In this document: positions 9,439-37,930 of the stretch, piece by piece
Position numbering within the stretch: the first letter of the stretch is position 1
How the letters are laid out: each line of letters starts with the position of its first letter
Source of the DNA: Gemmatimonadota bacterium
Lineage (GTDB): Bacteria > Gemmatimonadota > Gemmatimonadetes > Longimicrobiales > RSA9
Length of the DNA stretch: 64,000 nucleotides
Direction: 5' to 3'
NCBI GenBank assembly: GCA_040905425.1
Contig: JBBDRO010000106.1
Span: 10,710-74,709 of the forward strand
Made by a program: the position numbers and the translations under genes
Notes under the pieces: generated by a model
The model's database searches: none
The model's input: only the letters and a program-made list of their open reading frames with translations
Told to the model about the DNA's origin: nothing

Positions 9439-10629
9439 CTAGGGTTTGAGGATCCGGTACGCGCGCAGGAAGCCCAGTTCGCGCTCACCCGACTCCAGGA
9501 GCAATATCTCCCCGTCCCGGAAACCCACGATCCGGGCAGTAAACGGCAGGATGATTTCCGCCAGGCGTTGCCCCTGGCGGGAGTAGACCACCCAGCGCAG
9601 CTGCTCACCCGGCAGATCGAGCGACGGTACGGCCAACCACAGGTTGCCGTCCGCGTCCGCCACGACCTCATGGAAGCGCGGCGCGGAATCCGGGAAAACG
9701 CCCTCCATCTCCGCGGGGGGGACGATGTCCGGGTCGTCCGCCACGCCCAGTTGCACGACCAGCCGTTCGTAGAACGCCGTCTGGGCCGCGCGGTCCATGG
9801 CGGTCGACGGCTCGCCCACGGGTATGGTGTCCCGCACGGTGCCGTCCGGCGCCAGCACCTCAAGCAGGGGCTCGTCGCCGCTGCCCACCACGAGTTCGTG
9901 GTCCACCACCGTGTAGGCCAGCGGAGCCGGCATGTGGGAGGATTCCAGCCGGCCACCCTCGAGGCGCACCACGCGGTGCGCGAATTCACCGATCGTGTCC
10001 AGTAGCTGGCCTTCGGCCGACAGGTGAAGCAGGGCCGCGCGCCCGCGGCGCGCACCGACCCCCTCGACGGCTACGAAGGTCCAGCCCTCGGCCAGGAAAC
10101 CGCCATCCGCGAAGGCGTCCACGATGCCTGCCCCCCTGTCGATCGGCTGCCAACCGGCGCGCGCGGTGAGGGGGGCACTCATCGGCACGCTTCGTCCGAA
10201 GTTGCCCGTCGTGTCCAGGATGGCCACGCGCGCCTGATCGACCACGGCAAGCGAATCCCCGCGGTAAGGAAACACGCCACGAATGAACTGGAAGCGGTCC
10301 GGCCCGTTGCCCCGGCCGCCGAACGTCCTGATGAGCTGCCCATCCGCCGTAAAGATCCGGACCATCCGATCCGCCTGCGTGGCCACCACCAGCCGACCAT
10401 CCGGCAGCTGCGCGGCGCCCGTGACCGCCCGCAGCGAGTCGAGCGCCTCACCCTCCAATGCGCTTATGGACAGAGACGGCTCGGGCGCCAGCGCCCAGGT
10501 CCCCGGTGCAGGCGCCGCGGGCGGCGGGCTGTCAGGCGTAGGGGGACCGTCCTGGCCACATCCGCTGGCAAACAGGATGACCGTGAACACGAGCGCGCAG
10601 CGTCTTGTGATCATTGGGCTCATATCCAT
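9439..10629 (-). CDS. NHL-like 6-bladed beta-propeller lipoprotein, paralog P1
   Basis: Lipobox 'LFASGC', a degenerate NHL-type 'GGRGNGPDRF' motif, and the family C-terminal strand '...LGFLRAYRI'. ATG 10629 overlaps the DinB stop (TGATG). The track start 10632 is a TTG. Confidence 0.65.
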   Translation of the reverse strand: MDMSPMITRRCALVFTVILFASGCGQDGPPTPDSPPPAAPAPGTWALAPEPSLSISALEGEALDSLRAVTGAAQLPDGRLVVATQADRMVRIFTADGQLIRTFGGRGNGPDRFQFIRGVFPYRGDSLAVVDQARVAILDTTGNFGRSVPMSAPLTARAGWQPIDRGAGIVDAFADGGFLAEGWTFVAVEGVGARRGRAALLHLSAEGQLLDTIGEFAHRVVRLEGGRLESSHMPAPLAYTVVDHELVVGSGDEPLLEVLAPDGTVRDTIPVGEPSTAMDRAAQTAFYERLVVQLGVADDPDIVPPAEMEGVFPDSAPRFHEVVADADGNLWLAVPSLDLPGEQLRWVVYSRQGQRLAEIILPFTARIVGFRDGEILLLESGERELGFLRAYRILKP

Positions 10630-11168
10630 CAAGCATTCATCGGTGCAAGGTAGCGCGCCTCGAGAAGGGTCCGGTGGTGAAGTTCATGGCCGGCAATGAT
10701 CCATGCCAGCGCCCGTACCGTGACGGCCGCGCCGCTGGCCTGACCGCCCCGCGTCCATGCTTCGGGCGGCAGGCCCTGGAGGAGCGCCGAGGTGGCGGCG
10801 CGCACCGCTTCGAACTCCGCCACGAGGCTGGGCAGCGTGCGCATTTCGCAGCCGGCCGCCGGCGCCCACAGCTGCTCGTCGAAAGAGGCCAGCGGCGTGC
10901 CGTCCCCGCGCGCGAAGCGGAGGATCCGGTAGGCCATCACCCGCTCCGTATCGGCCATGTGGGCCACCACCTCCTTCACGCTCCACTTGCCTGCCGCGTA
11001 GCGGTGCTCGTGCAGGTTGGCGGGCGCCGCCAGCAGCAGCGCCGCCGTATCGGTTATCTGCGTGCGCAGCGTGGCGCGGACGTCCCCATCGGGGACCAAC
11101 CCCACGTAGCCGGCGTAGTACGGATTATATTCGCCGTCGGCGGGGCGGCTGCTCGGTGGTGTGCTCAT
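10629..11168 (-). CDS. DinB-family (DinB_2) metal-dependent protein
   Basis: Has 'KWSVKEVVAHMADTERV' and a C-terminal 'AGHELHH', consistent with the DinB four-helix-bundle His triad. It overlaps both neighbours (ATGA at 11165..11168). Confidence 0.75.
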   Translation of the reverse strand: MSTPPSSRPADGEYNPYYAGYVGLVPDGDVRATLRTQITDTAALLLAAPANLHEHRYAAGKWSVKEVVAHMADTERVMAYRILRFARGDGTPLASFDEQLWAPAAGCEMRTLPSLVAEFEAVRAATSALLQGLPPEAWTRGGQASGAAVTVRALAWIIAGHELHHRTLLEARYLAPMNA

Positions 11169-12358
11169 CCCGACTCCTCGTGCCCGGTGGTGGGTAGCCG
11201 GAAGCGCACGATGCGCTGGACGTCCAGCTCACCCGTCTCGATGGCGTAGGCCGCCTCCCCGCGGATGGCTCCCTGCGTGAGATCCACGTTCGCCGGCACC
11301 GCCACCGCGAAGCTGGGTGCGCCGGAACGCTCGTAGACATCCGCTCGCACGTGCGTGTCTCCGTCGGCCGGGGTGCGGAGCACCCACAGCCTGCCGTCCA
11401 GATCGAAGAAGATATCCCGCAGGACGGGCTTGCGCTCCTGCACCGTGGCCCGGTGCGACACGGTGGCGCCCATGCGTTCGAAGCTGGCTTCGTCGCTGGC
11501 CAGCTTGGCCGCGGCGCTGTCCCGCTCCGCCGGGGAGAGCAGGGGGCCCTCGTCAGGGCGGCGTACGTGCGCGATGGTGTCACCCGCCTCGTTGAAAACC
11601 ACCACCTCGTAGCGCCGCGTCACGGCATACGCGAAGCGCCCGTCGGGGGCGTGAGCCACGCGCTCCGACGCCTGGAAGGGGACGGAGTTCCAGAGCTGCT
11701 GCACCCGGCCGGGGAGCACCTCCAGGGCCACTTCCACCATGCCGAGCAGGCGGGGAGGGGTATTCGGCGGATAGACCCGCCGGAGGACGGCTCCCGTGGA
11801 ATCCACGTGCAGCCGCACGGGACGGGTGCTGTGGCTGCTGTCCACCGATTCGCGCGCATGCGCGATCAGGTGGCCGCCGGCGGCGAAGGACGGCGGTCCC
11901 GCACTCAGCAGCTCGTCGGCGGACGTGATGCGGAACACATGCCGCTCGGTGGCCGCATCAACGTCGAATACGTCCCAGCGCGTTGCCTGCGGTGCCATGC
12001 TCCACACCCAGAGCCGGCCCGCCGCATCGAAGCCGGGGCAGCACGGCCGCGCCAGATCGCCCGGGCCGCTGCCGGAGCGTCCGAATCGGCGGACGAGCTC
12101 CCCCGCCGGCGTGAACGCCCGTACGTCGACCGCCTGACCATCCACCACCCAGACGTGCCCCTCGGCGTCCAGCGTCAGACCGCTGATGCGCCCGAACACC
12201 CGGTCCGGGTCGCCATCCAGCACGCCGATGCGCAGCTCCACCGCCAGCGTGTCCGGACCCGCGAGGGGTTCCGGCCGTTCGTCCGCGGGGCCGGCGCACG
12301 CGGCCGCGAGCAGGAGCCCGGCCCCCAGCATCCCGGAGCGAACTCGGCGGCGGCTCAT
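11165..12358 (-). CDS. NHL-like 6-bladed beta-propeller lipoprotein, paralog P2
   Basis: The track ORF 11165..12931 is a fusion artefact. ATG 12358 (MSRRRVRSGMLGAGLLLAAAC, lipobox) overlaps the stop of 12355..12816 (ATGA). It carries 'GRSGSGPGDL' and the C-terminal 'ELDVQRIVRFRL'. Confidence 0.65.
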   Translation of the reverse strand: MSRRRVRSGMLGAGLLLAAACAGPADERPEPLAGPDTLAVELRIGVLDGDPDRVFGRISGLTLDAEGHVWVVDGQAVDVRAFTPAGELVRRFGRSGSGPGDLARPCCPGFDAAGRLWVWSMAPQATRWDVFDVDAATERHVFRITSADELLSAGPPSFAAGGHLIAHARESVDSSHSTRPVRLHVDSTGAVLRRVYPPNTPPRLLGMVEVALEVLPGRVQQLWNSVPFQASERVAHAPDGRFAYAVTRRYEVVVFNEAGDTIAHVRRPDEGPLLSPAERDSAAAKLASDEASFERMGATVSHRATVQERKPVLRDIFFDLDGRLWVLRTPADGDTHVRADVYERSGAPSFAVAVPANVDLTQGAIRGEAAYAIETGELDVQRIVRFRLPTTGHEESG

Positions 12359-12816
12359 TGCGCCACCCGCCGCAGTCCGGGATGACGGTAGGTTGCCAGC
12401 AGGCCGAAGAGACCGATCTGCACCATGGTGCCAGGGGCCAGCGCCGGGGTGGCGCCACGGAGCGTGGCCCACATGAGCGCGAGCCCCTGCATATCGGGGT
12501 ACATCTCCAGTTCGAACTCCATGTTGCCGGTGTAATGCAGCCAGAGGCCCAGCAGGCCGCCCAGGATGCAGGCGGCCATGACGGCGCGCAGCGCGAGCAG
12601 AACACCGCGGCGGGGGAGCGCCAGCGCGGCCACCGCCGCGGCAAGCCCCGCCGCCAGGAGCACGATCGGAACCCACTGGGACAGGTCCTCGTAATGGCCC
12701 AGCAGTACGAGTTCGATGCCGGTGCCCAGAATGCCCAGGATCAGCACGATAAGGAGCAGGCGCCGGAGGTGCGGGGCGCCGGGGTCGGCCGCTGTGACTG
12801 GAGAAGTCGTGGTCAT
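12355..12816 (-). CDS. Hypothetical integral membrane protein (about 4 TM helices)
   Basis: 153 aa from ATG 12816 (MTTTSPV...). There are four long hydrophobic segments. It is the first gene of an overlapping four-gene operon. I recognise no family. Confidence 0.5.
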   Translation of the reverse strand: MTTTSPVTAADPGAPHLRRLLLIVLILGILGTGIELVLLGHYEDLSQWVPIVLLAAGLAAAVAALALPRRGVLLALRAVMAACILGGLLGLWLHYTGNMEFELEMYPDMQGLALMWATLRGATPALAPGTMVQIGLFGLLATYRHPGLRRVAQ

Positions 12817-12990
12817 GGCTGGTGGTGCGGGTGCGCAGGTCAGAGACAGGTATAGCGCGCGGCCGGCGCTCGCGACAGAGTGGCACGCGTGGCCCACCGG
12901 AGCAACCCAACGGGCTGGTCCGGCATCCCATGGACGCCCATCATGCCGCGCGAATACGCGGGAACGTGATTCTCAAGTAGGAGTTCCAAT

Positions 12991-14172
12991 ATGCGACGAT
13001 GCTCGTCCACCTCCCTTGCCACGGCCGCCTGCGCGGCCCTGCTGGCCGCGTGCGGCGGCCCGGACCAGGCGGCGGTGCCCGTCGAGCGGACCGACTCCGC
13101 CGGCGTGGAGCTGGTGCGCAGCCTGGGGCCCGACGTGCCGCTGGACTGGACGTTCGAGACGGTGCTCACGCTCGGCGGCAAGGATGAGGGACCCGAGGCG
13201 TTCTATCAGGTCGGCAACACCGGCATCGGTACGGACGCGGCCGGCAACATCCACGTCCTGGACGGGGGCAACGGCCAGGTGCAGATCTTCGGGCCGGACG
13301 GCGCGCACCTGCGCACTGTGGGCCGGCGCGGGGAGGGGCCGGGTGAGCTGGGCCAGTTCCTCTACGGCATGGCCGTGGCGCCGGACGGCGCCATCGCCGT
13401 ATTTGACGCCATGAAGCGGACGCTCGTGCGCTGGGACGCCGCTGGCCAGGTCCTGCCGAGCATCGAGGTGGCGGGTCAGCCGAGTGGCCGGTTCGCGCTG
13501 CTCGACGACGGCTCCGTCATGGCCACCCTCCGCGACGGCGCCTACCAGGGAGACAGCGCTCGCTATGTCCTCCGGATCCTGGAGCCCTCCGGTGCCACCG
13601 AGGATCTGCTGGCCATGTTCGCGGCGCCGCTTCAGCCGGTGGACTTCGAGTGCGTGATGATCAGCGGTATGGCGCCGCTCTTCCAGCCGGAGATGCGCTT
13701 CGACCGGGCGGGTAGCGGGCTCGTGGTGTCGAGCGGACCGGACTACCGGGTGGAGGGCAGGAAGCCGGATGGCGCGGTGCACCGGGTGGTGAGCCGTGAC
13801 CTGCCCCCCGTGGCGGCCACCGCCGAGCTGGCAGCCATCGAATCGGACAGTATGACGGTCCGCTTCGGTGACGGGCGTAGCTGTGTGGTACCGGCCGACG
13901 AGGTGGTGGAGCAGCGCGGCTTCGAGCCCGTGGTCCCGGCCGTGCGCCAGCTCGTGGGCGCCCCGGACGGCAGCTTCTGGGTGCAGCGCGGCTACGGCAG
14001 CGAGCGGCGCGTCATCGATGTCTTCGCCGCGGACGGGGCCTACGTGGGCACGCTCCCGGCGGGCACGCCCTGGCCCGCCGCACTGCTGGATGGGGAGACG
14101 TTGCTGGTGCGTACCACGGACGAGTACGATCGTGAGATGGTGGAGGTGCGGCGCATCGTGCCGGGGTCCTGA
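12991..14172 (+). CDS. NHL-like 6-bladed beta-propeller lipoprotein, paralog P3
   Basis: AGGAG lies 7 nt upstream of ATG 12991. It has the lipobox 'LLAAC', 'TDSAGVELV', 'GRRGEGPGELGQF..GMAVAPDGAIAVFD' (NHL-like) and the C-terminal 'DREMVEVRRI'. Confidence 0.7.
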   Translation: MRRCSSTSLATAACAALLAACGGPDQAAVPVERTDSAGVELVRSLGPDVPLDWTFETVLTLGGKDEGPEAFYQVGNTGIGTDAAGNIHVLDGGNGQVQIFGPDGAHLRTVGRRGEGPGELGQFLYGMAVAPDGAIAVFDAMKRTLVRWDAAGQVLPSIEVAGQPSGRFALLDDGSVMATLRDGAYQGDSARYVLRILEPSGATEDLLAMFAAPLQPVDFECVMISGMAPLFQPEMRFDRAGSGLVVSSGPDYRVEGRKPDGAVHRVVSRDLPPVAATAELAAIESDSMTVRFGDGRSCVVPADEVVEQRGFEPVVPAVRQLVGAPDGSFWVQRGYGSERRVIDVFAADGAYVGTLPAGTPWPAALLDGETLLVRTTDEYDREMVEVRRIVPGS

Positions 14173-14190
14173 CCAGGAGGGTGGGAGCGG

Positions 14191-15411
14191 GTGGAGCAGA
14201 ACGAGCGCGGGACGTTTCAGGGGGACGTCGCTTACGAAACGATGCTGCCGGAGCCGCCACTGCGCGTGCCGGAAGGGGCGCTGGCGCGGCGGTTCGCGTG
14301 GATCGGGCTCGGCATGGCGGCCGCGGTCTTCGTGGCCGTGCTCATTGCCACGCAGAACTGGCTGGCGCTGGCCCAGGCCGGCGAGCCGGAACGGTGGCTG
14401 TGGATCTTTGCCATGGAGCTGCCGGTGTGGCTGGCGTGGGCGGCCGTGGCACCGCTCATCCTGCTCTTCGTGCGGCACTTTCCGGTGGCGGGCCGGCGAC
14501 GACTGCGCAATCTGGCGCTCCACCTGCCGTTCGCGCTTTTCATCGAGTTGCTTGCGTTCATGCTGCACAGCGTGGTGCGCTATCAGCTGGATCCCGGCGG
14601 GCCCGCGTCGGGGGGGTACTGGGACGTGGTCGCGGTGGGATATCCGCGCACCTTTGGCCTCTTCCTACTGGTCTACGGCGGCATCGTGGCGCTCTATCAG
14701 GCGCTGGCCTACTACCGCGCCTACCAGGCCCGTTCCATGGCCGAGAGCCGGCTGGAGGTGGAGCTGGCGCGCGCCGAGCTGCGCACGCTGCGCATGCAAC
14801 TCCATCCCCATTTCCTGTTCAACACGCTGCACGTGATCTCCGCCCTGATGACGCGTGACGTGGCCACGGCGCGCCGCATGATGCGGCGGCTGAGTGAACT
14901 GCTCCGCCTGACGCTGGAGACGGACTCGGCGCACGAGGTCACCCTGGAGGAGGAGCTGGCCATCCTGGATCACTACGTGGAGATCCAGAAGATGCGTTTC
15001 CAGGATCGGCTCACGGTGAGCGTGGAGGTCAGCCAGGAAGCGCGCGGCCAGGCGGTGCCCGCCTTGCTTCTGCAGCCCCTGGTGGAGAACGCTATCCTGC
15101 ATGGTGTGGCGCGCGTGGCCCGGCCCGGCCAGGTTGTCGTGCGCGGGGTGGTGGAGGGCCGGCAACTCCGCATTGCCGTGGAGGATAACGGACCGGGTCT
15201 GGCGCCGCGGTCCGACGATGATCGCGGGCGCGGGGGACTGGGCATCCGCAACACCATGGCGCGGCTGGCGCGGATCTATGGTCCGGGGGCCGCGCGCTTC
15301 TCGCTGCGGGAGCGGCCCGAGGGCGGTGCCGTGGCCGAACTGCGCCTGCCGCTGCGCTCGCGGGTGCCTGCCACAGATGCTCCAGCGGGGAGGGAGGGGA
15401 TCGATGAATGA
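14191..15411 (+). CDS. LytS/YehU-type sensor histidine kinase (membrane)
   Basis: About 4 N-terminal TM helices, then 'LRMQLHPHFLFNTLHVISALM' (the His_kinase PF06580 signature) and an HATPase_c region ('VEDNGPGL', 'GGLGIRN'). It starts 18 nt after P3. Confidence 0.85.
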   Translation: MEQNERGTFQGDVAYETMLPEPPLRVPEGALARRFAWIGLGMAAAVFVAVLIATQNWLALAQAGEPERWLWIFAMELPVWLAWAAVAPLILLFVRHFPVAGRRRLRNLALHLPFALFIELLAFMLHSVVRYQLDPGGPASGGYWDVVAVGYPRTFGLFLLVYGGIVALYQALAYYRAYQARSMAESRLEVELARAELRTLRMQLHPHFLFNTLHVISALMTRDVATARRMMRRLSELLRLTLETDSAHEVTLEEELAILDHYVEIQKMRFQDRLTVSVEVSQEARGQAVPALLLQPLVENAILHGVARVARPGQVVVRGVVEGRQLRIAVEDNGPGLAPRSDDDRGRGGLGIRNTMARLARIYGPGAARFSLRERPEGGAVAELRLPLRSRVPATDAPAGREGIDE

Positions 15412-16183
15412 CCAGGTCCGCGCGGTGATCGTGGACGATGAGCCGCTGGCCCGGGACCTCCTGCGGGGCATGCTGGAGAGCGTCGTCGAGGTGCGGGTGG
15501 TCGGGGAGGCGGGGGACGGAGCCGCCGCGGTGGAGTTGGTTCGCGGCGAGCGGCCGGAACTTCTCTTCCTGGATGTACAGATGCCCGAGCGGGACGGTTT
15601 CGACGTGCTGCGCGAGCTCGGGGAGGACGCGCCGCCGGCCGTCATCTTCGTGACGGCCTACGATCGGTACGCCCTGCGTGCGTTCGAGGTTAGCGCCATG
15701 GACTACCTGCTCAAGCCGTTCGATGAGGAGCGGCTGGAGCGCTCCGTGAGCCGGGCCGTGGCGGAACTGCGGGGTGCCGCGTCGGGCAAGGGGGAGGATC
15801 GGGTTGGCGAACTCCTGCGGCGGTTGGAACTGCTGGAGCGGAGGGAGCGGTACTCCGGGCGCCTGGCCATCACGCAGGGGGAGCGCACCTTCCTGCAGCC
15901 CGTACGGGACATCGACTGGATCGAGGCCGACGGCAAGTTCATGAACATCCACGTGGGGGAGAAGAAGTACACCATGCGCGCCACGCTGCTGGGCCTGCAG
16001 GAGCAGCTCGATCCGGAGGTCTTCCTGCGCGTCAGCCGGGGGGCGATCCTGAACGTGAATCGCATTCGCGAGGTGCAGCCCTGGTTCAACGGTGAGTACG
16101 TGGCCGTGATGCACAGCGGCGCGCAGGTGACCACCACGCGCAGCTACCGGGCCGCGCTCGCCCGCGTCATCGGCAAGGAATGA
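15404..16183 (+). CDS. LytR/AlgR-family response regulator (REC + LytTR DNA-binding domain)
   Basis: 'VIVDDEPLARDLL...LLFLDVQMPERDGFDV' is a receiver domain. The C-terminal '...IDWIEADGKFMNIHVGEKKYTMRATL..LEQLDPEVFLRVSRGAILN' is a LytTR domain. ATG 15404 overlaps the kinase gene by 8 nt. Confidence 0.9.
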   Translation: MNDQVRAVIVDDEPLARDLLRGMLESVVEVRVVGEAGDGAAAVELVRGERPELLFLDVQMPERDGFDVLRELGEDAPPAVIFVTAYDRYALRAFEVSAMDYLLKPFDEERLERSVSRAVAELRGAASGKGEDRVGELLRRLELLERRERYSGRLAITQGERTFLQPVRDIDWIEADGKFMNIHVGEKKYTMRATLLGLQEQLDPEVFLRVSRGAILNVNRIREVQPWFNGEYVAVMHSGAQVTTTRSYRAALARVIGKE

Positions 16184-16303
16184 TCGTTGCTGGCGCCGTG
16201 GGCCGGACAGGCCCATGATCCCTGCCCGCGCTGCCCGGCTCCAGGGGCGGCGCCCGGCAGCTGATGACACCCATTCTGGCGACCCAGGACAGGAAGAGCC
16301 GGC

Positions 16304-17191: not shown

Positions 17192-17213
17192 CGCGCTCCC
17201 GCTGGCATGGGAT

Positions 17214-17245
17214 CGGGCCCGGGCCGCCTGGCGGACCCGGGCCCG
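17214..17245. terminator. GC hairpin between convergent fba and the dehydrogenase gene (candidate bidirectional terminator)
   Basis: CGGGCCCGGG (17214..17223) pairs perfectly with CCCGGGCCCG (17236..17245) across a 12-nt loop. There is no clear U-tract. Confidence 0.4.
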
Positions 17246-24401: not shown

Positions 24402-25595
24402 TTACCGGTGGAGCGCGTACAGCGCCACCGCCTGCACCCCCAGCGAGTCCTCCTCCACCGCCAGCAGGCGATCCGTACCGATGTCCAGGATGCGCAGTGA
24501 GGCGCCCGGCGGCAGGTCTACATGGCCCAATCCGCGGCCCTCGGGATCCAGCAGGAAGAAGCGTTCGGGATTGTCCCGCACACGGGGCGGGTCCCCCACG
24601 TAGCGCGGCGTGTACTCCGCGATCCAGATGTTGCCCTCGGGGTCCGCCAGCAGGCCCTCGAAGTGCGGCAGCGGTTCCTGGATGGCCGCCTTCATGGTGG
24701 TCATGCGGCCGTTGATATCGGCGGCCGGTAGGCCGATCTCGGTGAATCGATCCCGCAGCGCACGCTCATACGCCGTCCAGAGCGAATCCGGCACCGGGAC
24801 GCTCGGCGCCTCCCAGCGCGCGATGCGCGTGGGTTCGCCGTCGGCGCCCAGCCAGCGCACCTCCGGCGCATCCCCGCGCCCCACCACCACCGTGCCCCCG
24901 GTGATCGTGGCGTGCCCCTGGCTCAGGAACGGGTTGTTGCCCCCGTAGTCCAGGCTCTGGTCCCAGTCCGCCACCGCCAGGGTGTCCACCACGCCCGTGG
25001 CCAGGCTCATGCGGACGAAGGGAATCGACAGCCATGGCGTCTCGTACCTGCGCCCGTACACCACGCCAGGAGGCATGCCGAACACGGCACGCCCCTCTTC
25101 ATCCGCTCCCAGCAGGCTCAGGTTGGCGGCGGGTCCCAGTTCCACGTCGCCCACCTGTTCACCGCCATGGAAGAGCGTAAGCCGGCGGTTCATGGCATCC
25201 TGCACCGCGATGGTGTCGGCCCCCAGGCGCTTCATGGCCAGAATGCGGCGGAATTCGCCCGGCCCCTGCCCGGGCCGGCCGAGCACGGCCTCGACTGCAC
25301 CATCGGAGGCCAGGACGCTCACCTGCAGCGTCTGCCCGCCGTCCGCGATGGCGGCGCCCCCGCCCTCCAGCAGAGCGCCGGCCACGATGTTCTCGAAGAC
25401 CGGCCCGGTTTCATCCCAGCCGACGCGCCACATGGGCTCTTCGGACACGCGCATGGGGGCGGCATCCGCCAGCGGCCAGGGGCTCTCCACCATGGAGATT
25501 CCGGCGCTGTCCCGAATGGTCACATGTGCGGACCGGGGTTGCCCGTCACCACAGGCGAGCAGGGCTGCGAGCAGAATGCCGATAGCTGGTTTCAC
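24402..25595 (-). CDS. NHL-like 6-bladed beta-propeller lipoprotein, paralog P4
   Basis: Lipobox 'LLAC', 'IRDSAGISMVE', 'GRPGQGPGEFRR' and the C-terminal 'GVQAVALYAL'. The GTG start overlaps the P5 stop (GTGA). Confidence 0.7.
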   Translation of the reverse strand: MKPAIGILLAALLACGDGQPRSAHVTIRDSAGISMVESPWPLADAAPMRVSEEPMWRVGWDETGPVFENIVAGALLEGGGAAIADGGQTLQVSVLASDGAVEAVLGRPGQGPGEFRRILAMKRLGADTIAVQDAMNRRLTLFHGGEQVGDVELGPAANLSLLGADEEGRAVFGMPPGVVYGRRYETPWLSIPFVRMSLATGVVDTLAVADWDQSLDYGGNNPFLSQGHATITGGTVVVGRGDAPEVRWLGADGEPTRIARWEAPSVPVPDSLWTAYERALRDRFTEIGLPAADINGRMTTMKAAIQEPLPHFEGLLADPEGNIWIAEYTPRYVGDPPRVRDNPERFFLLDPEGRGLGHVDLPPGASLRILDIGTDRLLAVEEDSLGVQAVALYALHR

Positions 25596-26407
25596 CGGTC
25601 ACCGGGCTGGATCCGGAAGCGCACCACGTACGCCTCATCGAACTCCCCACGCACCGTGGCCCAGACATCCCGGTCCACCACGTCGTAGAAGTAGGCGTTC
25701 GCCGGCAGGACCACGGTCCCCAGGAAGGTGCCGGTCGGCTCGAACACGTTCCAGGTCGGCTGTTCGCGCCACTCGTGGGGGGGCGCTCCGCTCGCGGGTG
25801 GCGGGCCGGTGCGCGGCCGGTGCACCGCCTCCACGTAGCGGCGTACCCAGATCCGTCCGCCGGCATCGGTGCGCAGGGTGCTGAAGGCCGGCTTCGTGTC
25901 CGGCACCGAATAGCTGCGGTCGCCGCTCCCGGCGCGCGCGAAGAACTCCGCCCAGGCCTCCCACTCCGCGTGCTCCGGTCCGCGCACGGGCAGGGGTGTG
26001 AAGGGCCGCTCGATGCGCAGCGCCGGCTCCTCGGTCCGCCGCAGCTCGAAGGCGTACGTGCGGTTGTGGCCGACCACCAGGTATCCGAGCGGGCTCAACG
26101 TGGTGACCAACTGCCTCGTGAAGGGCCGATCGTAGCCCGAGGCGGTGCTCAGCACGAAGGAGGGCGGAGTGCTCGGCTCCTCCGGGATCGGCAACCAATC
26201 GAGTACCTCACCCCCGGCGGAGAGGCGGATCCATACCTCCCCGTGGCGTTCGCGCGGATCGTCGGCGCCGTCCATTGTGCCGATGCGCACCTCCTCCACC
26301 AGCCGCGGCGCCGGCCCCCAGACGGGAGCGTTCGTGGCGCGCACGACCTGCGGCTGCTGCGCGGCGGCCGGAAGGGCGGTGGCACCCAGGACCAGAACCA
26401 GGGCCAT
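25592..26407 (-). CDS. Truncated/divergent member of the propeller family, paralog P5
   Basis: 271 aa from ATG 26407 (MALVLVLGATALPAAAQQ). It aligns only to the C-terminal part of the family ('...GRIWVRRY...', 'EFDEAYVVRFRI'). It lacks the lipobox and the GPGEF blade. Confidence 0.5.
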   Translation of the reverse strand: MALVLVLGATALPAAAQQPQVVRATNAPVWGPAPRLVEEVRIGTMDGADDPRERHGEVWIRLSAGGEVLDWLPIPEEPSTPPSFVLSTASGYDRPFTRQLVTTLSPLGYLVVGHNRTYAFELRRTEEPALRIERPFTPLPVRGPEHAEWEAWAEFFARAGSGDRSYSVPDTKPAFSTLRTDAGGRIWVRRYVEAVHRPRTGPPPASGAPPHEWREQPTWNVFEPTGTFLGTVVLPANAYFYDVVDRDVWATVRGEFDEAYVVRFRIQPGDR

Positions 26408-30432: not shown

Positions 30433-30440
30433 GCCGGGTA

Positions 30441-31835
30441 TCATCCCCCGCCGGCAGCCTCCCCCGATGGCAGCACGACCACCCCGATCCCCTCATCGGC
30501 GCGCCACTCGATCGCAGTCCCGAACGGGCGCGAGCGCTCCACCAGGTCACCGATGATCTTGGCACCCAGCTCCCGGTCGGCCAGCAGCGGGCGCCCGCGC
30601 ACCGTGCGCGGCTCGCCGTAGCCCAGCGTGATGGGGTGCAGCTCGAGGGACACGAGCCGCTCCCCCTCCCAGGTGGGCAGCGCCACCACCGCCTCCCAGA
30701 TCTCCCGGTCCGTCGGGAAGCCACGCGTGTCGTCACGGTAGCGGGCGGCGTTGAAATCCCCCACGAATGCGTCCTCAGGCAGATCGTAGGGCGCGTAGTT
30801 GTCGGCCGGCAGGCGGAGCAGCGTCTCGTTCTGGAAGATGAAGTCGCCCAGCGAGTAGAGGATGGGCTTGCCCCGGTAGATCTCGATGCCGCGCAGCACG
30901 TGCGGGCCGTGGCCCACAAAGACGTCCGCGCCGGCGTCGATCATGGCGCGCGCGAAGGTGACGAGGAACTCGGCGGGGGTGGAGCGGCCACCGTCGCCTC
31001 CCTCATGGGCATGAATGGTGACGATGACGTAGTCCGCCAGCATGGCGGCGTTGCGCACCACGGCGCCGATGGCCGCCACGTCCTCCGGGTCGGGCTCCGT
31101 GTCACGGCCGTCCTGGTCCGCGGCCACCAGCGTGGTGCCGAAGACGCTCAGCTGATGGCCCGAGTCGGGGACGCGCTGGCCAATGTCCCGCAGCGCCGTG
31201 CGCAGCGTCTCCAGCTTCTCCCGCTCGATCGTGCGGGTGGTCCGGTAGCGCAGGGGGTTCAGCCCCGGACGGCCGCGCACCGCGCCCCGCGCCGGCCCGG
31301 CCGCGGAGTGGTCCGGGAAGGTGGAGGCCACGCTGATGAGGGCCACGCGCCCGTCCTGCGTGTCCAGGAAATGGGCCTCACGCGCCTCGGTCAGGTTCTC
31401 ACCCGCGCCGGCGGCCACCAGCCCCGCCTCGGCCGCGTACTTCCGAGTGAGACGCATGCCGTCGGGTCCGTAATCGCCGGTGTGGTTGTTGGCCAGTGAG
31501 ACCAGATCGATGCCCGCCCACGTCAGCTCGTGGGCCAGCGCCGGCTCGGCGCGCATGTAGGTGCCGCCGCTCTGGTGCGCCGGGTAGGGCTCGTAGTCGT
31601 GGAAGAGCATCTCCAGGTTGGTGAACGCCGCGTCGGCGCCCCGGAGCAACTCGATCATGTCCAGGAACGCCGGCTCCTTGAAGGGGGAGAGGCGGCGCGT
31701 GATGATGGCGTCGCCGGTGAGGGCCAGGGTGAAGCGACCGTCGCCTGACAGAGCGCCTGACGGGTCCTGCGCCATGGCCGGTAGCGGCAGCAGCACGGTC
31801 AGCGTCACCAGGACGAGAGGGAGGCGCGTGCGCAT
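30441..31835 (-). CDS. CapA-family (poly-gamma-glutamate capsule synthesis-like) metallophosphatase
   Basis: 'DLVSLANNHTGDYG', 'VTIHAHEG' and 'FVGHGPHVLRGIE' match PGA_cap/CapA motifs. The signal peptide ends 'PAMAQD'. Confidence 0.8.
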   Translation of the reverse strand: MRTRLPLVLVTLTVLLPLPAMAQDPSGALSGDGRFTLALTGDAIITRRLSPFKEPAFLDMIELLRGADAAFTNLEMLFHDYEPYPAHQSGGTYMRAEPALAHELTWAGIDLVSLANNHTGDYGPDGMRLTRKYAAEAGLVAAGAGENLTEAREAHFLDTQDGRVALISVASTFPDHSAAGPARGAVRGRPGLNPLRYRTTRTIEREKLETLRTALRDIGQRVPDSGHQLSVFGTTLVAADQDGRDTEPDPEDVAAIGAVVRNAAMLADYVIVTIHAHEGGDGGRSTPAEFLVTFARAMIDAGADVFVGHGPHVLRGIEIYRGKPILYSLGDFIFQNETLLRLPADNYAPYDLPEDAFVGDFNAARYRDDTRGFPTDREIWEAVVALPTWEGERLVSLELHPITLGYGEPRTVRGRPLLADRELGAKIIGDLVERSRPFGTAIEWRADEGIGVVVLPSGEAAGGG

Positions 31836-32025
31836 GATGCGGCTCCTGGCTGGAGGGGAAAGGGCCGCCGTGGGGCGACCCCCTCATGCTACGGCGCGGT
31901 GCGTTCCACGTCGAGGGGTGCGCCCGGGCTGGCCGGTTCGCTGCCCGTTGCCTATGCTTCGGCGTTCATCCCCGCGGCGGCCTCCCTCGCCCGAGCGTAC
32001 CGCACGCCCATGGTAGGAGGCACGC

Positions 32026-33981
32026 ATGCACACCCTCCCGCGACCCGCCGCGTCCCGCACGGCGCTGACGCTCACCTTCATGGCCACCGCCTGGCTGGCC
32101 GGCCTCGCCTGTCCCCGCGCGGTGGCCGCCCAGGAGAGCAGCTACGACGCCCTGGTGGAGATTGCCATCATCGAGGAGCTGGTGATGATGCCCATGCGCG
32201 ACGGCGTGCGCCTGGCCACCAACATCTACCGGCCCAAGAGCTCGGCGTCGGTGCCGGCACCCACGATCTTCGTGCGCACGCCCTACAACATGAACATGTG
32301 GCGCGACGGCGAGCATTCCACCGGCCGCTACGGCGCCATCCTGGACGCGGTGCGGCGCGGCTACGTCTACGTGAACCAGAACGAGCGCGGCCGCTTCTAC
32401 TCCGACGGGGAGTGGGACATCCTGGGACCGCCCCTCACGGACGGCTACGACGCCCTCAGCTGGATCGCGGACCAGCCCTGGTCGAACGGCAGGGTGGGGA
32501 CCTACGGCTGCTCGTCCACCGCGGAGTGGCAGATGGGCCTGGCCGCCCTGGACCATCCGGCCCACGCCGCCATGGTCCCCCAGGGCTTCGGCGCCGGTGT
32601 GGGCCGGGTCGGGGACTGGTACGAGCAGGGCAACTGGTACCGCGGCGGCGCCGAGCAGATGCTCTTCTTCACCTGGCTCTACGGCGTTCAGAACACGCAG
32701 CGTCCCCGCGTCGACCGGGACACGCCGCGTGAGGACCTGGTGCGGCTCTCCCGCTACTTCGACCTGGCCCCCGAGATGCCCGGCGTGGACTGGCCGGAGG
32801 CGCTCTGGCACCTGCCCGTCGAGGATCTCATGCGCAGCGTGGACGGGCCGCAGGGGATCTTCGCCGATCCCGCGCCCGTGGCCACCGGCGGGCGCATGAT
32901 CCAGCGCACGCCGAACGATCCGGCGTGGTACCGGGGTGGCCTCTACCACGACGACATGCCCTTCGGCGTTCCCGCCCTGTGGTTCATGTCCTGGTACGAC
33001 GTCTCGGTGGGTCCCAACCTGGCGCTCTTCAACCACGTGCGGGAGAACGGCATCGACGCCGAGACCCGTGCGAACCAGTTCGCGGTGGTGGCGCCCGTGG
33101 CCCACTGCGCCTACACCCGCGCCAGCCAGAACACGATGGTGGGGGAGCGGAGCGTGGGCGATGCCCGGTGGGCCTACGACGAGCTGATCTACGCCTGGTG
33201 GGACCGCTGGTTGAAGGGTGTCGAAAACCAGGTCACCGACACGCTGCCGGCGGTGCGCTACTACACCATGGGCTCCAACGAATGGCAGACCGCCACGGCT
33301 TGGCCGCCGCCAGCCGCGGAGATGGTCACCTATTATCTGGATTCCACCAGCGGCGCCAACACGCTCCGAGGCGACGGCGCGCTACGCACGAGCATGCCCG
33401 GGGCGGCCGGCTTCGACGCGTTCACCTACGATCCCGCCGACCCCGTCCTCTCGCACGGCGGCAACGTGTGCTGCATCGGCGGCGCCATCCAGGCGGGCGC
33501 CTTCGACCAGCAGGCGGTGGAGGCGGAGCGCGAGGACATCCTGGTCTACACCACGGAGCCCTTCACGGAGGGCACGGAGGTGAGCGGGCCCGTGGAGGTG
33601 CTGCTCTACGTGTCCTCGGACGCCAGGGACACGGACTTCACCGTCAAGCTGCTGGACGTGGATCCCGACGGGCGCGCCTACAACTTGGACGAGAGCATCC
33701 AGCGGGCGCGCTGGCGCGAGGGCTACGAAGGGGATCCCGTTTTCATGGAGCCGGGGCAGGTCTACCAGGTGAAGGTGGGGCCGCTGACCACCTCGAACCG
33801 CTTCCTGCCCGGCCACCGGCTGCGCATCGAGGTGTCCAGCTCCAACTTCCCGCGCTTCACGCGCAACCTGAACACGGGCGGCAACAACTACGACGAGACC
33901 GAGATGCGGGTGGCGCGCAACCGGGTGCACCACTCGCGCGAGCACCCCTCGCAGGTGCGGGTGCCGGTGGTGCGGCGCTGA
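32026..33981 (+). CDS. CocE/NonD family hydrolase (S15 X-Pro dipeptidyl-peptidase-like)
   Basis: 'IFVRTPYN', '[13 protein letters not shown]' (nucleophile elbow region) and the C-terminal '[22 protein letters not shown]' typical of the PepX_C domain. The signal ends 'AVAAQE'. Confidence 0.85.
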
Positions 33982-34044
33982 GGGGGCGGCGGCGCCGAAG
34001 CCCATGCCCGGCCAGCCCGCCCCCGGGCGGCGATCCCAACCGGC

Positions 34045-34070
34045 CGGCCGGCGGGCCAGTTCGCCGGCTG
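34045..34070 (+). terminator. GC stem-loop about 65 nt downstream of the CocE-like gene
   Basis: GCCGGCG (34047..34053) pairs with CGCCGGC (34062..34068) across an 8-nt loop, plus two flanking pairs. There is no U-tract. Confidence 0.3.
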
Positions 34071-34121
34071 CGGTGGTAGAAGCGCTCGGCCTTGCCGTTT
34101 CAGAACGCTCGGGCCAAAGGG

Positions 34122-34143
34122 CTGCATACCCAAACGTATGCAG
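34122..34143. other. Stem-loop CTGCATAC-ccaaac-GTATGCAG inside a low-GC non-coding island
   Basis: 8-bp perfect arms and a 6-nt loop, read directly from the sequence. Confidence 0.4.
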
Positions 34144-34235
34144 CAGAAATGATTGTTTGCTGGCGGTGTAAGATGCTGCGTGGTAGGTGTTTGCGACATT
34201 CCGCTCAGGCGAGAATCCTCAAACTTCACCCACAC

Positions 34236-34253
34236 AATATTCTATAGAATATT
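34236..34253. promoter_or_regulatory. Perfect 18-bp AT-rich palindrome AATATTCTATAGAATATT (candidate dimeric-protein binding site)
   Basis: The sequence equals its own reverse complement over all 18 nt. It lies in a 381-bp non-coding gap between two convergent genes. Confidence 0.45.
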
Positions 34254-34362
34254 TTGGCTCAACCATGCGCCGCCGGGGCCGAATCTGTAGAGCGCCTCGG
34301 AGCCCCATACTTGCCTCCCGTGGTCAGACCCGCCCAATCGTTGGCGGGGCCGGCGCCGTACA

Positions 34363-35526
34363 TCACCGTTTAAAGAGCGGATAGGCGCGCACGTACTCCA
34401 CGTCCATCTCGTCGCGCCACACCCCCAGCACGGCGGCCGTATCGATTGCGTGGACGGTGAGCCCCGCCGGCGTCTCCGCCACGCCCGCGAACGCGCCGTC
34501 CGGGTCGAAGACCCACCAGCGCACAGACCCCTCTTCCGGCTGGGCGTAGGGGCGGAGCCACAGGTGTCCCGCGGTGTCCACGCGGAGCGCCGAGAGCACC
34601 GGCTTGGTGTCGGGAAACGGCACCGCGTCCAGGCGAGGCAGGATCTCCTGCTCCAGCAGGGACGGCGGTACGCCGCTGATGTAACGCGCCCGGATGCTGT
34701 CCACGTCGGTGGCGTCCACCGGCTGGCCGACGGCGCCGCAACGGATGATGCGCTGCAGGCGGCCGCGCAAATTGTAGGACCGGACTTCGCAGGCGCTCGT
34801 GTCGGCAACATGGATGTTGGAATCGGTGAGCGTGTACAGGGCGGTCCGGCCGAATGGGCGGGTCAGCCCGTCGAACGTCTCCAGTCGGGGGATGCGGATC
34901 AGCGTGTCCCGCGTGCCGCCGGTGCCGAAGCGGACCAGCACGGAGGTGTCGCGGCGCAGCACCCGCGCCCCCGGCGCAACGTCGGCCGGTTTCCGTAACG
35001 AATAGACCAGCTCGGTGCCGAAGCAGCCCGCCACCGGCGGCAGCGACCCGCGATCCATCGGCGGCGCTTCAGCCGACTCGCGAAAAGCGCCATCTGCATT
35101 CAGCCGCGAGACCCGCGGGATCTGCAGGTCCTCGGCGATGAGCCCCGAACCGCACGTACGTACGGAGCGTAGCCGCCGGAATTCGCCCGGCCCGTCACCC
35201 TCGCCGCCCGCCGTGTGCAGGTGCCGCCCCGCGTCGTCGAAGAAGCGTAGTTCCGCGCCCTGAGCAATCAGCAGCCGCCCATCTGGCAGCCGGAGTACGC
35301 TGCGCACGCCGTCGAGCTGGTAGGCCGCCTCTCCGTCGATGGCGCCTATGGTAAGCGACGGCGTCGCATCCGCGCGCCACCGCACCTCCCCGTTCGCGGC
35401 GGGCGCCGGGTTCTGCACGATGCGGATGCCAGCGCTGTCGCGGACGGTGACGCCGCCTTGACCGACGTCGGTGCCGCATGCTGCTGCCGTGAAGAGGAGG
35501 AGCAACCCCGTTACCCGTACGTGCAT
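34363..35526 (-). CDS. NHL-like 6-bladed beta-propeller lipoprotein, paralog P6
   Basis: Lipobox 'TAAAC', 'VRDSAGIRIVQN', 'GGEGDGPGEFRR' and the C-terminal 'VLGVWRDEMDVEYVRAYPL'. It starts 3 nt after the P7 stop. Confidence 0.7.
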   Translation of the reverse strand: MHVRVTGLLLLFTAAACGTDVGQGGVTVRDSAGIRIVQNPAPAANGEVRWRADATPSLTIGAIDGEAAYQLDGVRSVLRLPDGRLLIAQGAELRFFDDAGRHLHTAGGEGDGPGEFRRLRSVRTCGSGLIAEDLQIPRVSRLNADGAFRESAEAPPMDRGSLPPVAGCFGTELVYSLRKPADVAPGARVLRRDTSVLVRFGTGGTRDTLIRIPRLETFDGLTRPFGRTALYTLTDSNIHVADTSACEVRSYNLRGRLQRIIRCGAVGQPVDATDVDSIRARYISGVPPSLLEQEILPRLDAVPFPDTKPVLSALRVDTAGHLWLRPYAQPEEGSVRWWVFDPDGAFAGVAETPAGLTVHAIDTAAVLGVWRDEMDVEYVRAYPLFKR

Positions 35527-35529
35527 TCG

Positions 35530-36822
35530 CTACTCCTTCTCCAGGGCGTAGACGCGGACGTACTCCACGTCGAATTCGTCGCGATACATGCCCAGGACGT
35601 GATCCTGCCCGATTTCGAAGACGGTGAAGTCAGCAGGCGTGGTGACCTCCCCTAGCCATCTGCCGTCCGGGTCGACGACCGACCAGGTGGACGGCCCGTC
35701 GTACGTGGGTCTGTGGTGGGTGGTGGTGGCACCATGGCTCACCTCGAAATGGCGCAGCCACACGTTGCCCGCACGGTCGCTGACGAGCCTGGAAAACCGC
35801 GGCAGCGTATCGGCGAACGTCCTGCCGCGCGCAATGTCCTCGCGCAGGGGTGGCACCGAGTGCCTTACGTAGTCGTCGACCATGCCCTCGGTTGCCGCTT
35901 GCCCTGGCCAGGCGCGGCGCGTCAACCGTTCCAGCCGACCCTCGGGATGGTACCAGCGGACCTCGCCCTCCCTCGAAAGGCCCACGATGAGGCTCCGACC
36001 GTCGGTCCCGGCGTACGTGGTGGCGCCGAACACCGCCGGCAGGATCAGGTTCATCGGGTGCGGATGGTAGGCGGGGCCCTCGAGGCTGACCAATTCATTC
36101 AGAACGGCACCATCGCGCCCGAAACGGGAGAAGGTCAACGTCAGCGTGTCCGCTTGCTCGAACCGGCGCTCGGCGGTGACCGCCAGTCGGGAGGCTTCCC
36201 AGCCGATGAACGTGCCGTCCTCCAGCCAGCCCACGACGCGGATGCCGGTGGGCGGGTTCAGCTGAAAGGTGATGGGATCCACGGATGGCAGCGGCATGGA
36301 GCCCGTTGCGATCACGTCCCGATAGGTGCCGTCCGACCCGTACATGTGCAGGCGTTCCAGGAGGTCGTAAACGGCAATGCCATCATCGGGCAGGCGGTGA
36401 AGGCCCATCACCTGGCGGAACTCGCCCGGGCCTTCCCCCCGCGAGCCCACCGACATCAGGTGCTGGCCGTCGGGATCGAAGAAGCGCAATTCGGAGGCGC
36501 CCATGTCCGCCACCACGATGCGCCCGTCGGAAAGCGTGACCGCACCCATGATCCGGTCGAAGAGGTACGCCGGCTCCCCGTCCATGGCGCCGATCTGGAC
36601 CGTGGGCGGCTCCACCAGCCGCCAGCTTTTGTCGGCGGTCCAGGCGGGTGCCTCGTTCTGAACTATCCGTACGCCGGCGCTATCGGTGATGACCACGCCC
36701 GGGTCGGCCGGCCGAACCAGATCGCACGCCCCGATCCAGAGAAATGCCCCGAGAAGGGCCAGCCAGGCACCCGAACCGCATGCTGTGCGTCGGATGTCAA
36801 TGCCCACCCGTGGTGTCCTCAT
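35530..36822 (-). CDS. NHL-like 6-bladed beta-propeller lipoprotein, paralog P7
   Basis: ATG 36822 (MRTPRVGID...WIGAC lipobox) lies 13 nt after the P8 stop. It has 'ITDSAGVRIVQN', 'GSRGEGPGEFRQ' and the C-terminal 'VLGMYRDEFDVEYVRVYAL'. Confidence 0.7.
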   Translation of the reverse strand: MRTPRVGIDIRRTACGSGAWLALLGAFLWIGACDLVRPADPGVVITDSAGVRIVQNEAPAWTADKSWRLVEPPTVQIGAMDGEPAYLFDRIMGAVTLSDGRIVVADMGASELRFFDPDGQHLMSVGSRGEGPGEFRQVMGLHRLPDDGIAVYDLLERLHMYGSDGTYRDVIATGSMPLPSVDPITFQLNPPTGIRVVGWLEDGTFIGWEASRLAVTAERRFEQADTLTLTFSRFGRDGAVLNELVSLEGPAYHPHPMNLILPAVFGATTYAGTDGRSLIVGLSREGEVRWYHPEGRLERLTRRAWPGQAATEGMVDDYVRHSVPPLREDIARGRTFADTLPRFSRLVSDRAGNVWLRHFEVSHGATTTHHRPTYDGPSTWSVVDPDGRWLGEVTTPADFTVFEIGQDHVLGMYRDEFDVEYVRVYALEKE

Positions 36823-36835
36823 CACCGCGTGGTGA

Positions 36836-37930
36836 TCACGATGGCGAGCGATGGTAGCGATGGACGTGCACGTGCTCCACGTCCAGTTCGTCACGCCAGA
36901 TGCCGGCGATCAGCTCGCCCCTGATGCTGAGCGGTTGAAAGCCCGGCGGCATGGCCACCTCGGCCAACAGGCCGCCAGCGCCATCGAAAACCGACCATGC
37001 CTGCGCAGCCGCGGGGTCCGTGGGATAGGCTCCCACCCAGATGTTCCCGGCGTCATCGATGACGAGCCCCCCCACCGCCGGAAAATGGGTGGGAGCGGGC
37101 ATCCGTGCCTGCGCGCCCGTGCGGCTTCCGGGGTCCGGATCGGGGATAGCCACCGGCTCGTGAGGGCGGCGGAGCGTGCGCTCCGCGCCGGTGTCCAGGT
37201 CGTAGACACGCAGGGTGAACGTCTCCCCGTCGGCCACGTAGACGGTCCGATCCCGCACCGCGATGTAGGTCTTCTTGAGGTGCGGTGGGTTGAGCAGGAC
37301 CCCCTCCATGACCGCCCGCTCGTCCCCCACCACGGTGCCGATCGTGTCGAGTGGTGTACCGGCCGGATTGTAGACGCCGATCTGGTGGGTGGGGCGGACG
37401 AGCCCGCTGCCGTCACGGGGGGTGGCGGCGAGCGCGGAGGTTCGCCTGGCCAGGAGGGTGCCGTCATCGAGGATGGCCAGGAGCTCCGGCACCCCGAGGC
37501 CGCGCTCCCCCGGCTCGAGGGCCAGCGTGCGTGCGAAGCCGTCGTGGATGGAGAAGATCGTGGCGCGGCGGAGTGCGCGGTCGTAGGCCACGATGGAATC
37601 CGGTGCGCGTTCCTGGATCCATGCGATCGCGCGAAACTCCCCCGGACCCCCGCCGGAGGCGCCGAAGATGGTGTCCACCTGGCCTGAGCGGCTGAGCACC
37701 ACGATACGCTGCGCCCCGTCCGCCACCACCAGGTGACCGCTGGAAGTCAGCAGCGCGCCCACCACACGATCCAGCGGCAGTTCGCCGCCGCCGACGCGCG
37801 TGAGCGGCGCCGGATCCACTGCCCACTCCTGCGCCGCGAGCGCCGGCGTCGCGGCGACGGTGTGCAGCAGTATGGCGAGGGCCGCGCCCGCCGTGGCGGG
37901 AATGCTCCTGCCGCGGCGGGAGATGCCCAC
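36836..37930 (-). CDS. NHL-like 6-bladed beta-propeller protein, paralog P8 (secreted, no lipobox)
   Basis: The GTG start shares one nucleotide with the TAG stop of the BlaR1-like gene (TAGTG). It has the signal 'ALAILLHTVAATPALAAQE', 'GASGGGPGEFRA' and the C-terminal 'IAGIWRDELDVEHVHVHRY'. Confidence 0.7.
   Translation of the reverse strand: MGISRRGRSIPATAGAALAILLHTVAATPALAAQEWAVDPAPLTRVGGGELPLDRVVGALLTSSGHLVVADGAQRIVVLSRSGQVDTIFGASGGGPGEFRAIAWIQERAPDSIVAYDRALRRATIFSIHDGFARTLALEPGERGLGVPELLAILDDGTLLARRTSALAATPRDGSGLVRPTHQIGVYNPAGTPLDTIGTVVGDERAVMEGVLLNPPHLKKTYIAVRDRTVYVADGETFTLRVYDLDTGAERTLRRPHEPVAIPDPDPGSRTGAQARMPAPTHFPAVGGLVIDDAGNIWVGAYPTDPAAAQAWSVFDGAGGLLAEVAMPPGFQPLSIRGELIAGIWRDELDVEHVHVHRYHRSPS

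Follow-up and report, generated by a model that had tools for sequence, protein, structure and literature searches.

The stretch of DNA analysed here (the window) comprises 64,000 nucleotides from a Gemmatimonadota bacterium of the order Longimicrobiales (contig JBBDRO010000106.1 of assembly GCA_040905425.1; C106:10710-74709 in an assembly of 4.12 Mb and 115 contigs) and contains nine genes for exported beta-propeller proteins of one family, most of them predicted lipoproteins. Within this genome-wide and lineage-wide family the window is a patch of moderate density, and the family itself is probably a divergent, hyper-expanded Gemmatimonadota branch of the catalogued, functionally unstudied family DUF5128. 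As the window has a G+C content of about 70%, real genes were chosen among the open reading frames (ORFs) by G+C at the codon positions. The nine family genes are the following:

9439-10632, minus strand: P1 (A), propeller lipoprotein of 391-397 amino acids, lipobox FASGC, degenerate motif GGRGNGPDRF
11165-12358, minus strand: P2 (B), propeller lipoprotein of 397 amino acids, MSRRRV...LLLAAAC, motif GRSGSGPGDL
12991-14172, plus strand: P3 (C), propeller lipoprotein of 393 amino acids, lipobox LLAAC, DSAGVELV strand, motif GRRGEGPGEL
24402-25595, minus strand: P4 (D), propeller lipoprotein of 397 amino acids, lipobox LLAC, DSAGISMV strand, motif GRPGQGPGEF
25592-26407, minus strand: P5 (D2), 271 amino acids, Sec-type signal, internal deletion
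34363-35526, minus strand: P6 (E), propeller lipoprotein of 387 amino acids, the copy used for the AlphaFold2 model
35530-36822, minus strand: P7 (F), propeller lipoprotein of about 430 amino acids, start MRTPRV, lipobox WIGAC, motif GSRGEGPGEF
36836-37930, minus strand: P8 (G), propeller of 364 amino acids, Sec-type signal ALA-AQE, motif GASGGGPGEF
63939-64000, plus strand: ninth copy, of which the first 62 nucleotides lie in the window, lipobox LAAAC; it runs to the end of contig C106

The start of P2 is the internal ATG at 12358 and not that of the 588-amino-acid ORF, and the start of P7 was refined to 36822. The motif G..G.GP..[FL] occurs exactly seven times in a six-frame search of the window (GGRGNGPDRF, GRSGSGPGDL, GRRGEGPGEL, GRPGQGPGEF, GGEGDGPGEF, GSRGEGPGEF and GASGGGPGEF), each time in a separate ORF of about 400 amino acids, so that every NHL-like motif quoted in the first-pass annotation of this DNA was recovered, once per gene. 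When the seven motif-bearing copies were searched against the window with tblastn, each recovered the others over almost its full length at 22-35% identity (E 1e-46 to 1e-3, the best pair being P7 and P6 with E 2e-46), and the search uncovered the eighth, shorter copy at 25592-26407 (P5). Scores against the family profile reach E 1e-106 to 1e-134, with E 5.5e-124 for P1, which was itself used to build that profile. All eight paralogs that had been placed at 9439-37930 are thus found at their positions and are homologous far beyond chance by tblastn and profile. The suspected ninth copy is likewise real, because the ORF starting at 63939 (MRAGRACLVAAVLAAAC...) matches the family profile with E 1.5e-31. 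A multiple alignment of the window copies contains a common lipobox, a DSAG strand (present, as described, in P3, P4, P6 and P7), the GPGEF loop and a C-terminal RDE.DVE strand, which is found in P6-P8 and is weaker in the other copies. The architecture claimed to be shared by P1-P8 holds in that all eight align together, but P5 lacks the GPGEF blade.

All window copies are of exported type, and most have a lipobox (P1, P2, P3, P4, P6, P7 and the ninth copy), while P5 (AAA-QQ) and P8 (ALA-AQE) possess Sec-type signals and no lipobox. Among the 82 strong members of the family in the genome, 60 contain a lipobox after a hydrophobic stretch, in which the lipobox cysteine is followed by glycine or alanine and then by aspartate or glutamate at positions +4 and +5; the next eight residues contain on average 1.5 acidic and 0.37 basic residues, and a DS[AGT]G strand lies about 15 residues further on in 38 of these 60 proteins. 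The general layout is therefore a signal peptide, usually with the lipobox cysteine, a short acidic tether rich in glycine, alanine and proline, the DSAG hairpin and six blades, the fourth and fifth of which are separated by two helices. By these signals, most members are predicted to be lipid-anchored exported proteins.

The AlphaFold2 model of P6, calculated from an alignment of 122 sequences, has a mean predicted local distance difference test score (pLDDT) of 92.9 and a predicted template modelling score (pTM) of 0.89, and consists of six blades, the number expected in the first-pass annotation, with 23 blade strands in addition to the N-terminal strands. It runs from a signal helix through the hairpin at residues 27-39 (the DSAG strand) and two more N-terminal strands to the four-stranded blades 1-4, the two helices at residues 272-301, blade 5 and a three-stranded blade 6, whose fourth strand is probably supplied by the N-terminal strands of the model. 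In a Foldseek search of the PDB with this model, the top matches are NHL domains (Thin, Brat, Mei-P26 and TRIM2/3/71; E 5e-11 to 1e-8), followed by BF0058 of Bacteroides fragilis (4raa; E 1.2e-9, template modelling score (TM-score) 0.49-0.53) and the DUF4221 protein 3s9j (E 2.4e-7, query TM-score 0.52), and further down by lactonases and the seven-bladed BtuG lipoproteins (E about 1e-6). The sequence profile search of the PDB matches NHL proteins via query positions 65-187, which correspond to blades 1-2 only; the NHL signature is thus partly kept, being present in blades 1-2 and lost in blades 3-6.

Naming the family by hidden Markov models succeeded in part. The NHL-like motif stood, and two copies exceed the cut-off of PF17170 (DUF5128; 22.9 bits), namely P3 (25.8 bits) and P7 (24.2 bits), but otherwise the Pfam matches are marginal or sub-threshold: P1 reaches 13.2 bits, P2, P4, P6 and P8 have no match to PF17170, the matches to Pfam NHL (PF01436) score 13.3 and 17 bits against a cut-off of 20, and those to SGL are likewise below threshold, as are the weak ScyF-NHL matches in NCBIfam, which lie far below the cut-off. 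PF17170 is nevertheless matched by 63 of the 122 homologues at E<1e-3, and close relatives of P5 have precomputed PF17170 matches. Like BF0058 and other PF17170 proteins, the window proteins are exported, six-bladed and multi-copy, measure about 350-420 amino acids and are functionally unstudied. They differ from these in their marginal matches and in a TM-score to 4raa of about 0.5, while a lipobox, a tether and a DSAG N-terminus of its own, together with copy numbers that reach about 100 or more per genome, set the Gemmatimonadota branch apart. The TRIM-NHL proteins (Brat 1q7f, Thin 6d69, TRIM2/3/71), which provide the best Foldseek and PDB profile matches and resemble the family in its canonical NHL blades 1-2, bind RNA or protein in the eukaryotic cytoplasm and have six repeats that resemble one another, whereas the window family carries the signature in blades 1-2 only, has a helical insert between blades 4 and 5, and is exported and, by prediction, lipidated. 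The NHL domains of Brat and TRIM71 are non-catalytic and bind through the top face. The DUF4221 protein BVU_1028 of Bacteroides vulgatus (3s9j) is also an exported propeller of unstudied function, but shares 10% identity and has no Pfam match at the sequence level. Peptidylglycine amidating lyase (PAL; 3fvz) and SMP-30/gluconolactonase belong to the same fold class and give weak profile matches over the NHL blades, but their metal-binding or catalytic residues have no conserved equivalents in the window family.

A profile built from the eight window copies matches 119 places in the genome, and the genome-wide count proposed in the first-pass annotation gave 115 six-frame ORFs at E<1e-3; of these, 82 pass E<1e-20, and 78 are near full length. 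The family ORFs occupy 52 of the 115 contigs, 58 of them as singletons and the remainder in 22 arrays of two to four genes, and amount to 2.7-3.6% of the genome DNA when measured from stop to stop. No other paralog family of the genome is as large: BLAST single linkage assigns 65 members to this one and 37 to the runner-up. From the genome average, 1.3 copies and 1.2 clusters would be expected in the window, against the nine copies and four clusters observed; on contigs C74, C58, C63 and C37 the family genes are packed more closely than in the window. As 14 of the 115 members lie at most 700 nucleotides from a contig end, against 8.3 expected, the true copy number may be somewhat higher, and the family probably breaks the assembly so that its copies are underestimated. 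Examples of such members are C37:43669-44886, C5:11637-13052, C4:12333-13166 and C106:74411-75799.

In the maximum-likelihood tree of the 78 near-full-length copies, the internal branches are short and the terminal ones have a median of 1.15 changes per site, which gives the tree the shape of a star. The window copies stand in different parts of this tree: P6 and P7 alone fall together, in a loose, unstarred group, while the partners of the ninth copy and of P1 are copies on contigs C30 and C62, respectively. The window copies are thus of old origin, and most of them are not nearest kin of one another, which agrees with the view that the pairs, at 22-35% identity, are diverged and not recent duplicates. 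The local expansion proposed for the window, that is, tandem expansion at this place, is ruled out by the scattered tree positions together with the genome-wide count.

The relatives of the window proteins in databases are hypothetical proteins of Gemmatimonadota, Longimicrobiales and Candidatus Palauibacter metagenome-assembled genomes, and some relatives from Balneolaceae, Planctomycetota and Gemmatimonadaceae bear the NCBI name '6-bladed beta-propeller'. A single-protein search of the contigs of other genomes gave 8 loci. At E<1e-5, the copy number within the same GTDB family and order ranges from 0 to at least about 61, and at least one match at E<=1e-30 is found in 70 of 151 sampled genomes of the phylum. 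A complete 4.5-Mb genome of the order (G021:C1) contains at least 150 matches at E<1e-19, with 431 candidates; the family is thus expanded across the order. This genome also carries arrays of at least five family genes as well as several copies with internal stops or split frames (for example 604018-609892, 2114582-2124059 and 2618910-2625101). When 1.84 billion representatives at 50% identity were searched with the profile, 20,686 proteins matched at E<=1e-30, most of them of about 400 amino acids and aligned end to end. No paper was found that mentions DUF5128 or DUF4221 or that describes the family or its expansion, and the main text of two comparative genomic studies of Gemmatimonadota is without propellers, NHL or lipoproteins (PMC11316326, PMC10469786).

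Several observations bear on the turnover of the family. P6 has metagenome relatives at 83% and 56% identity, while its best match in other genera of its GTDB family is 35-40% identical, about the same as its paralogs in the genome and no better than P7; the corresponding value for the M56 part of the BlaR1-like protein encoded nearby is 40-47%. P5 lacks the GPGEF blade because of an internal, in-frame deletion of 348 nucleotides (junction at about 26259-26270), which removed 116 amino acids covering blades 1-2 and part of blade 3. Its closest relative (P0266) is 93% identical and 419 amino acids long, and the gene for this relative (L095:4056-5315) lies on a metagenome contig in the same gene order, consisting of a Sortilin-like gene, the propeller, a gene of 365 amino acids that aligns with P4, and a convergent gene in the place of the SLT-domain (lytic transglycosylase) gene of the window. 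The DNA of the window and of L095 is about 92% identical, and blastn returns two blocks with a 12-nucleotide overlap at the deletion junction. The deleted form is found without differences on contigs of two sediment runs. These alignments show P5 to be the product of decay by in-frame deletion from a full-length propeller gene.

Codon alignments of the tandem arrays C32:69841-73835 and C81:75332-78006 are mosaic, in that identity is 90-97% and synonymous divergence (dS) low over some 80 codons just past the signal peptide, but identity falls to 30-50%, with dS saturated, in the remainder of each gene; gene conversion of the 5' part between neighbours is therefore deduced. A blastn screen for such tracts recovered the C32 and C58 pairs alone and missed the tract in C81. 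In the tandem pair C8:57799-60484, the overall ratio of non-synonymous to synonymous divergence (dN/dS) is 0.84, and around blade 3 (codons 160-240) dN is the larger of the two, at values close to saturation.

Columns kept in at least 70% of the 78 paralogs comprise thirteen glycines (G61, G83, G100, G107, G110, G112, G114, G146, G167, G186, G255, G320 and G344), five prolines (P113, P224, P305, P309 and P353), E115, D30, D127, D133, D372, R4, R94, R138, W323, W337, four valines and the lipobox cysteine, while no histidine, asparagine, tyrosine or serine column reaches this level. The conserved aspartates, glycines and glutamate occupy the canonical turn positions of NHL repeats ('dG' and 'VaD'), as judged from the family consensus and the Pfam NHL signature, and the residue set of catalytic propellers (His, Asn, Glu and Tyr, as in PAL, SMP-30/lactonase and Vgb lyase) is not conserved among the 78 paralogs. 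With strands assigned to blades from the AlphaFold2 model, the A-B loops have 1.5 inserted residues per sequence and an entropy of 2.38 bits, and the C-D loops 1.9 residues and 2.41 bits, against 10.5 residues and 2.93 bits in the B-C loops and 15.8 residues and 2.88 bits in the D-A loops. Two loops of the latter classes are exceptions and represent the most conserved parts of the protein, namely GxGPGEF, which connects blades 1 and 2 and has an entropy of 1.46 bits, and RDExDVE in blade 6, with 1.51 bits. Propellers usually bind their ligands on the face made up of the D-A and B-C loops, and the family is therefore described as a fixed scaffold with one variable face. With moderate confidence, the modelled loop classes suggest that the paralogs are non-catalytic binding modules. 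Of the diversifying binding or enzymatic modules proposed in the first-pass annotation, the binding part is thus in keeping with the pattern of loop variation, while the enzymatic part meets no conserved set of catalytic residues.

The interpretation judged somewhat more probable than its contrary is that of an old, very large family of exported NHL-type propellers, which would serve as envelope-tethered binders and evolve by birth and death. In this scheme, the A-B and C-D loops together with the GxGPGEF and RDExDVE loops would make up a constant scaffold, the remaining B-C and D-A loops would differ in sequence and length so that each copy could recognise a different partner, and turnover of the family would involve duplication in tandem, rapid divergence, gene conversion that occasionally affects neighbouring copies, and the decay of copies through deletions or stop codons. 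A number of points weigh against this interpretation. Loops are often more variable than strands under neutral drift too, and the 'top' face was assigned from standard propeller topology, not from coordinates. Catalytic propellers may need few residues, and active sites specific to single paralogs are compatible with weak conservation. Positive selection in the C8 pair is no more than hinted at by near-saturated and non-robust values. Genome-wide, no conserved partner gene pointing to a ligand was found. Lastly, when expression evidence was sought, only sediment DNA runs matched the stretch, so that the metagenome runs that carry it are DNA runs throughout.

The surroundings of the copies are mostly ordinary core genome, including IspG, glutamate dehydrogenase, aldolase, XdhC, MobA and molybdopterin dehydrogenase subunits, and contain several exported hydrolases and related proteins (one M14, one S9 and two S15 peptidases, a PGA_cap protein and a Sortilin/BNR protein). 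Non-family genes near the copies include the following:

10629-11168, minus strand: DinB_2 superfamily gene (PF12867, E 6e-20), between P2 and P1, not a family member
12355-12897, minus strand: small ORF, a four-helix membrane protein by eye without Pfam match, whose stop overlaps the start of P2
37930-39522, minus strand: BlaR1-like M56 peptidase, directly upstream of P8 and co-directional with P8, P7 and P6
39522-39917, minus strand: BlaI-type repressor, directly upstream of the BlaR1-like gene

The four-helix ORF, P2, the DinB gene and P1 form one run, in which P1 is last. The C-terminus of the BlaR1-like protein is unusual, as the M56 part is followed by two stretches matching the Plug domain of TonB-dependent receptors (PF07715, E 2.3e-11). 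Neighbours were compared genome-wide by BLAST clustering of three genes on each side of 87 family genes, with p values that are uncorrected for about 25 or more tests, and no neighbour family is clearly enriched. The best are Sortilin/BNR (5 of 18 members, p=0.035), two three-member families (p=0.0012 each), by eye one GntR regulator-like and the other restriction-endonuclease-like, and S15 (3 of 9, p=0.06). A shared partner gene was ruled out by this lack of clear enrichment. The link to secreted peptidases that had been hinted at is not borne out either, as S15 remains at the value given and S9 at 3 of 14 (p=0.18), both uncorrected.

The peptidases of the window also bear on the proposal that the paralogs act as enzymes in the periplasm or at the surface, for instance as lyases, lactonases or esterases resembling PAL, SMP-30 and Vgb, each with its own substrate and perhaps acting on peptides alongside the M14, S9 and S15 enzymes. 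It can draw on the weak Pfam SGL matches, on the PDB profile, which reaches peptidylglycine amidating lyase (3fvz) with E 5.8e-7, and on the Foldseek lactonases; however, the profile matches extend no further than the generic NHL blades 1-2, structural NHL positions account for the conserved residues, with no conserved His, Asn or Tyr column among them, and the peptidase neighbours are without significant enrichment in the genome, so that enzymatic function is considered unlikely. The predicted lipid anchor and acidic tether, the rapid turnover with large differences in copy number among relatives, and the conversion tracts in two arrays would also suit a variable surface coat, whose diversity evades phages, predators or host recognition and does not serve the binding of nutrients or partners. 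This account is held to be highly doubtful, as no shared upstream element, invertible element or silent cassettes were seen around the copies, nor any sign of one-at-a-time expression, and most copies are intact, independent genes dispersed among core genes.

Two further proposals start from the genes next to the copies. The blaI, blaR1, P8, P7 and P6 genes are co-directional with nearly no spacing, the GTG start of P8 sharing one base with the stop codon of the blaR1-like gene, and P3 is followed after a gap of 18 nucleotides by a LytS-type kinase gene and a LytTR regulator; the copies may accordingly be accessory sensor or adaptor lipoproteins of membrane signalling proteins, P8-P7-P6 acting with BlaR1/BlaI and P3 with LytS/LytTR. 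A BlaI-BlaR1 pair directly followed by one or two family members is also found at 4 of 20 loci of other genera and recurs in four of these genera (L055, L057, L073 and L074), but three of these four had been spotted before sampling, and the unbiased rate is therefore 1 of 17. By gene order, the BlaI-BlaR1-propeller arrangement appears recurrent but is unproven, and no beta-lactamase or penicillin-binding protein gene was recognised among the annotated genes of the window. A general association with BlaI/BlaR1 was rejected, as the genome has only 3 BlaR1-like and 6 BlaI-like genes and the 4 of 20 loci are biased by selection. None of 20 LytS-type loci in relatives has a propeller upstream, and the adjacency of P3 and LytS is therefore probably coincidence. 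With 3 BlaR1-like and 2 LytS-type genes set against 82-115 propellers in the genome, a sensory role of the family seems rather improbable. It is scarcely credible that each propeller specifically binds or protects a small, secreted, cysteine-rich peptide whose gene adjoins its own. When the neighbourhood of family genes was scanned strictly for small ORFs with a signal and four or more cysteines, two hits were obtained, both of which resemble wrong-frame artefacts; under relaxed criteria with a codon-usage filter, 1 hit was obtained for 92 family genes, compared with 17 for 400 random genes; and no such ORF lies next to the nine copies of the window.

Taken further, the interpretation as envelope-tethered binders leads to a recognition repertoire, in which about 100 or more tethered propellers per cell would share one constant, putative docking patch for a common partner, formed by the invariant GxGPGEF and RDExDVE loops, and differ in their variable faces, an extension that must be regarded as quite speculative and is probably wrong in this form. 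If true, tandem duplication, the exchange of 5' parts among neighbours through conversion, and deletion would renew this repertoire, which would be a bacterial counterpart of large variable receptor families and serve in the capture of diverse polymers or the recognition of other cells.

Soils and sediments are rich in Gemmatimonadota, which have nevertheless been little studied. About one gene in 40 of this genome belongs to a single exported family whose function is unstudied, the share being higher in the complete relative, and in public data the family comprises more than 20,000 clusters at 50% identity, so that knowledge of the propeller ligands would explain a sizeable part of the Gemmatimonadota envelope proteome. 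For the window itself the finding is deflationary, as there is no special local expansion and both fold and family are already catalogued; ordinary as a window finding, the family nevertheless justifies envelope proteomics and ligand screening by its size. Elsewhere in the window, two tandem genes for TolC-like outer-membrane factors (PF02321) are located at 1082-2752 and 3178-4722 on the minus strand.

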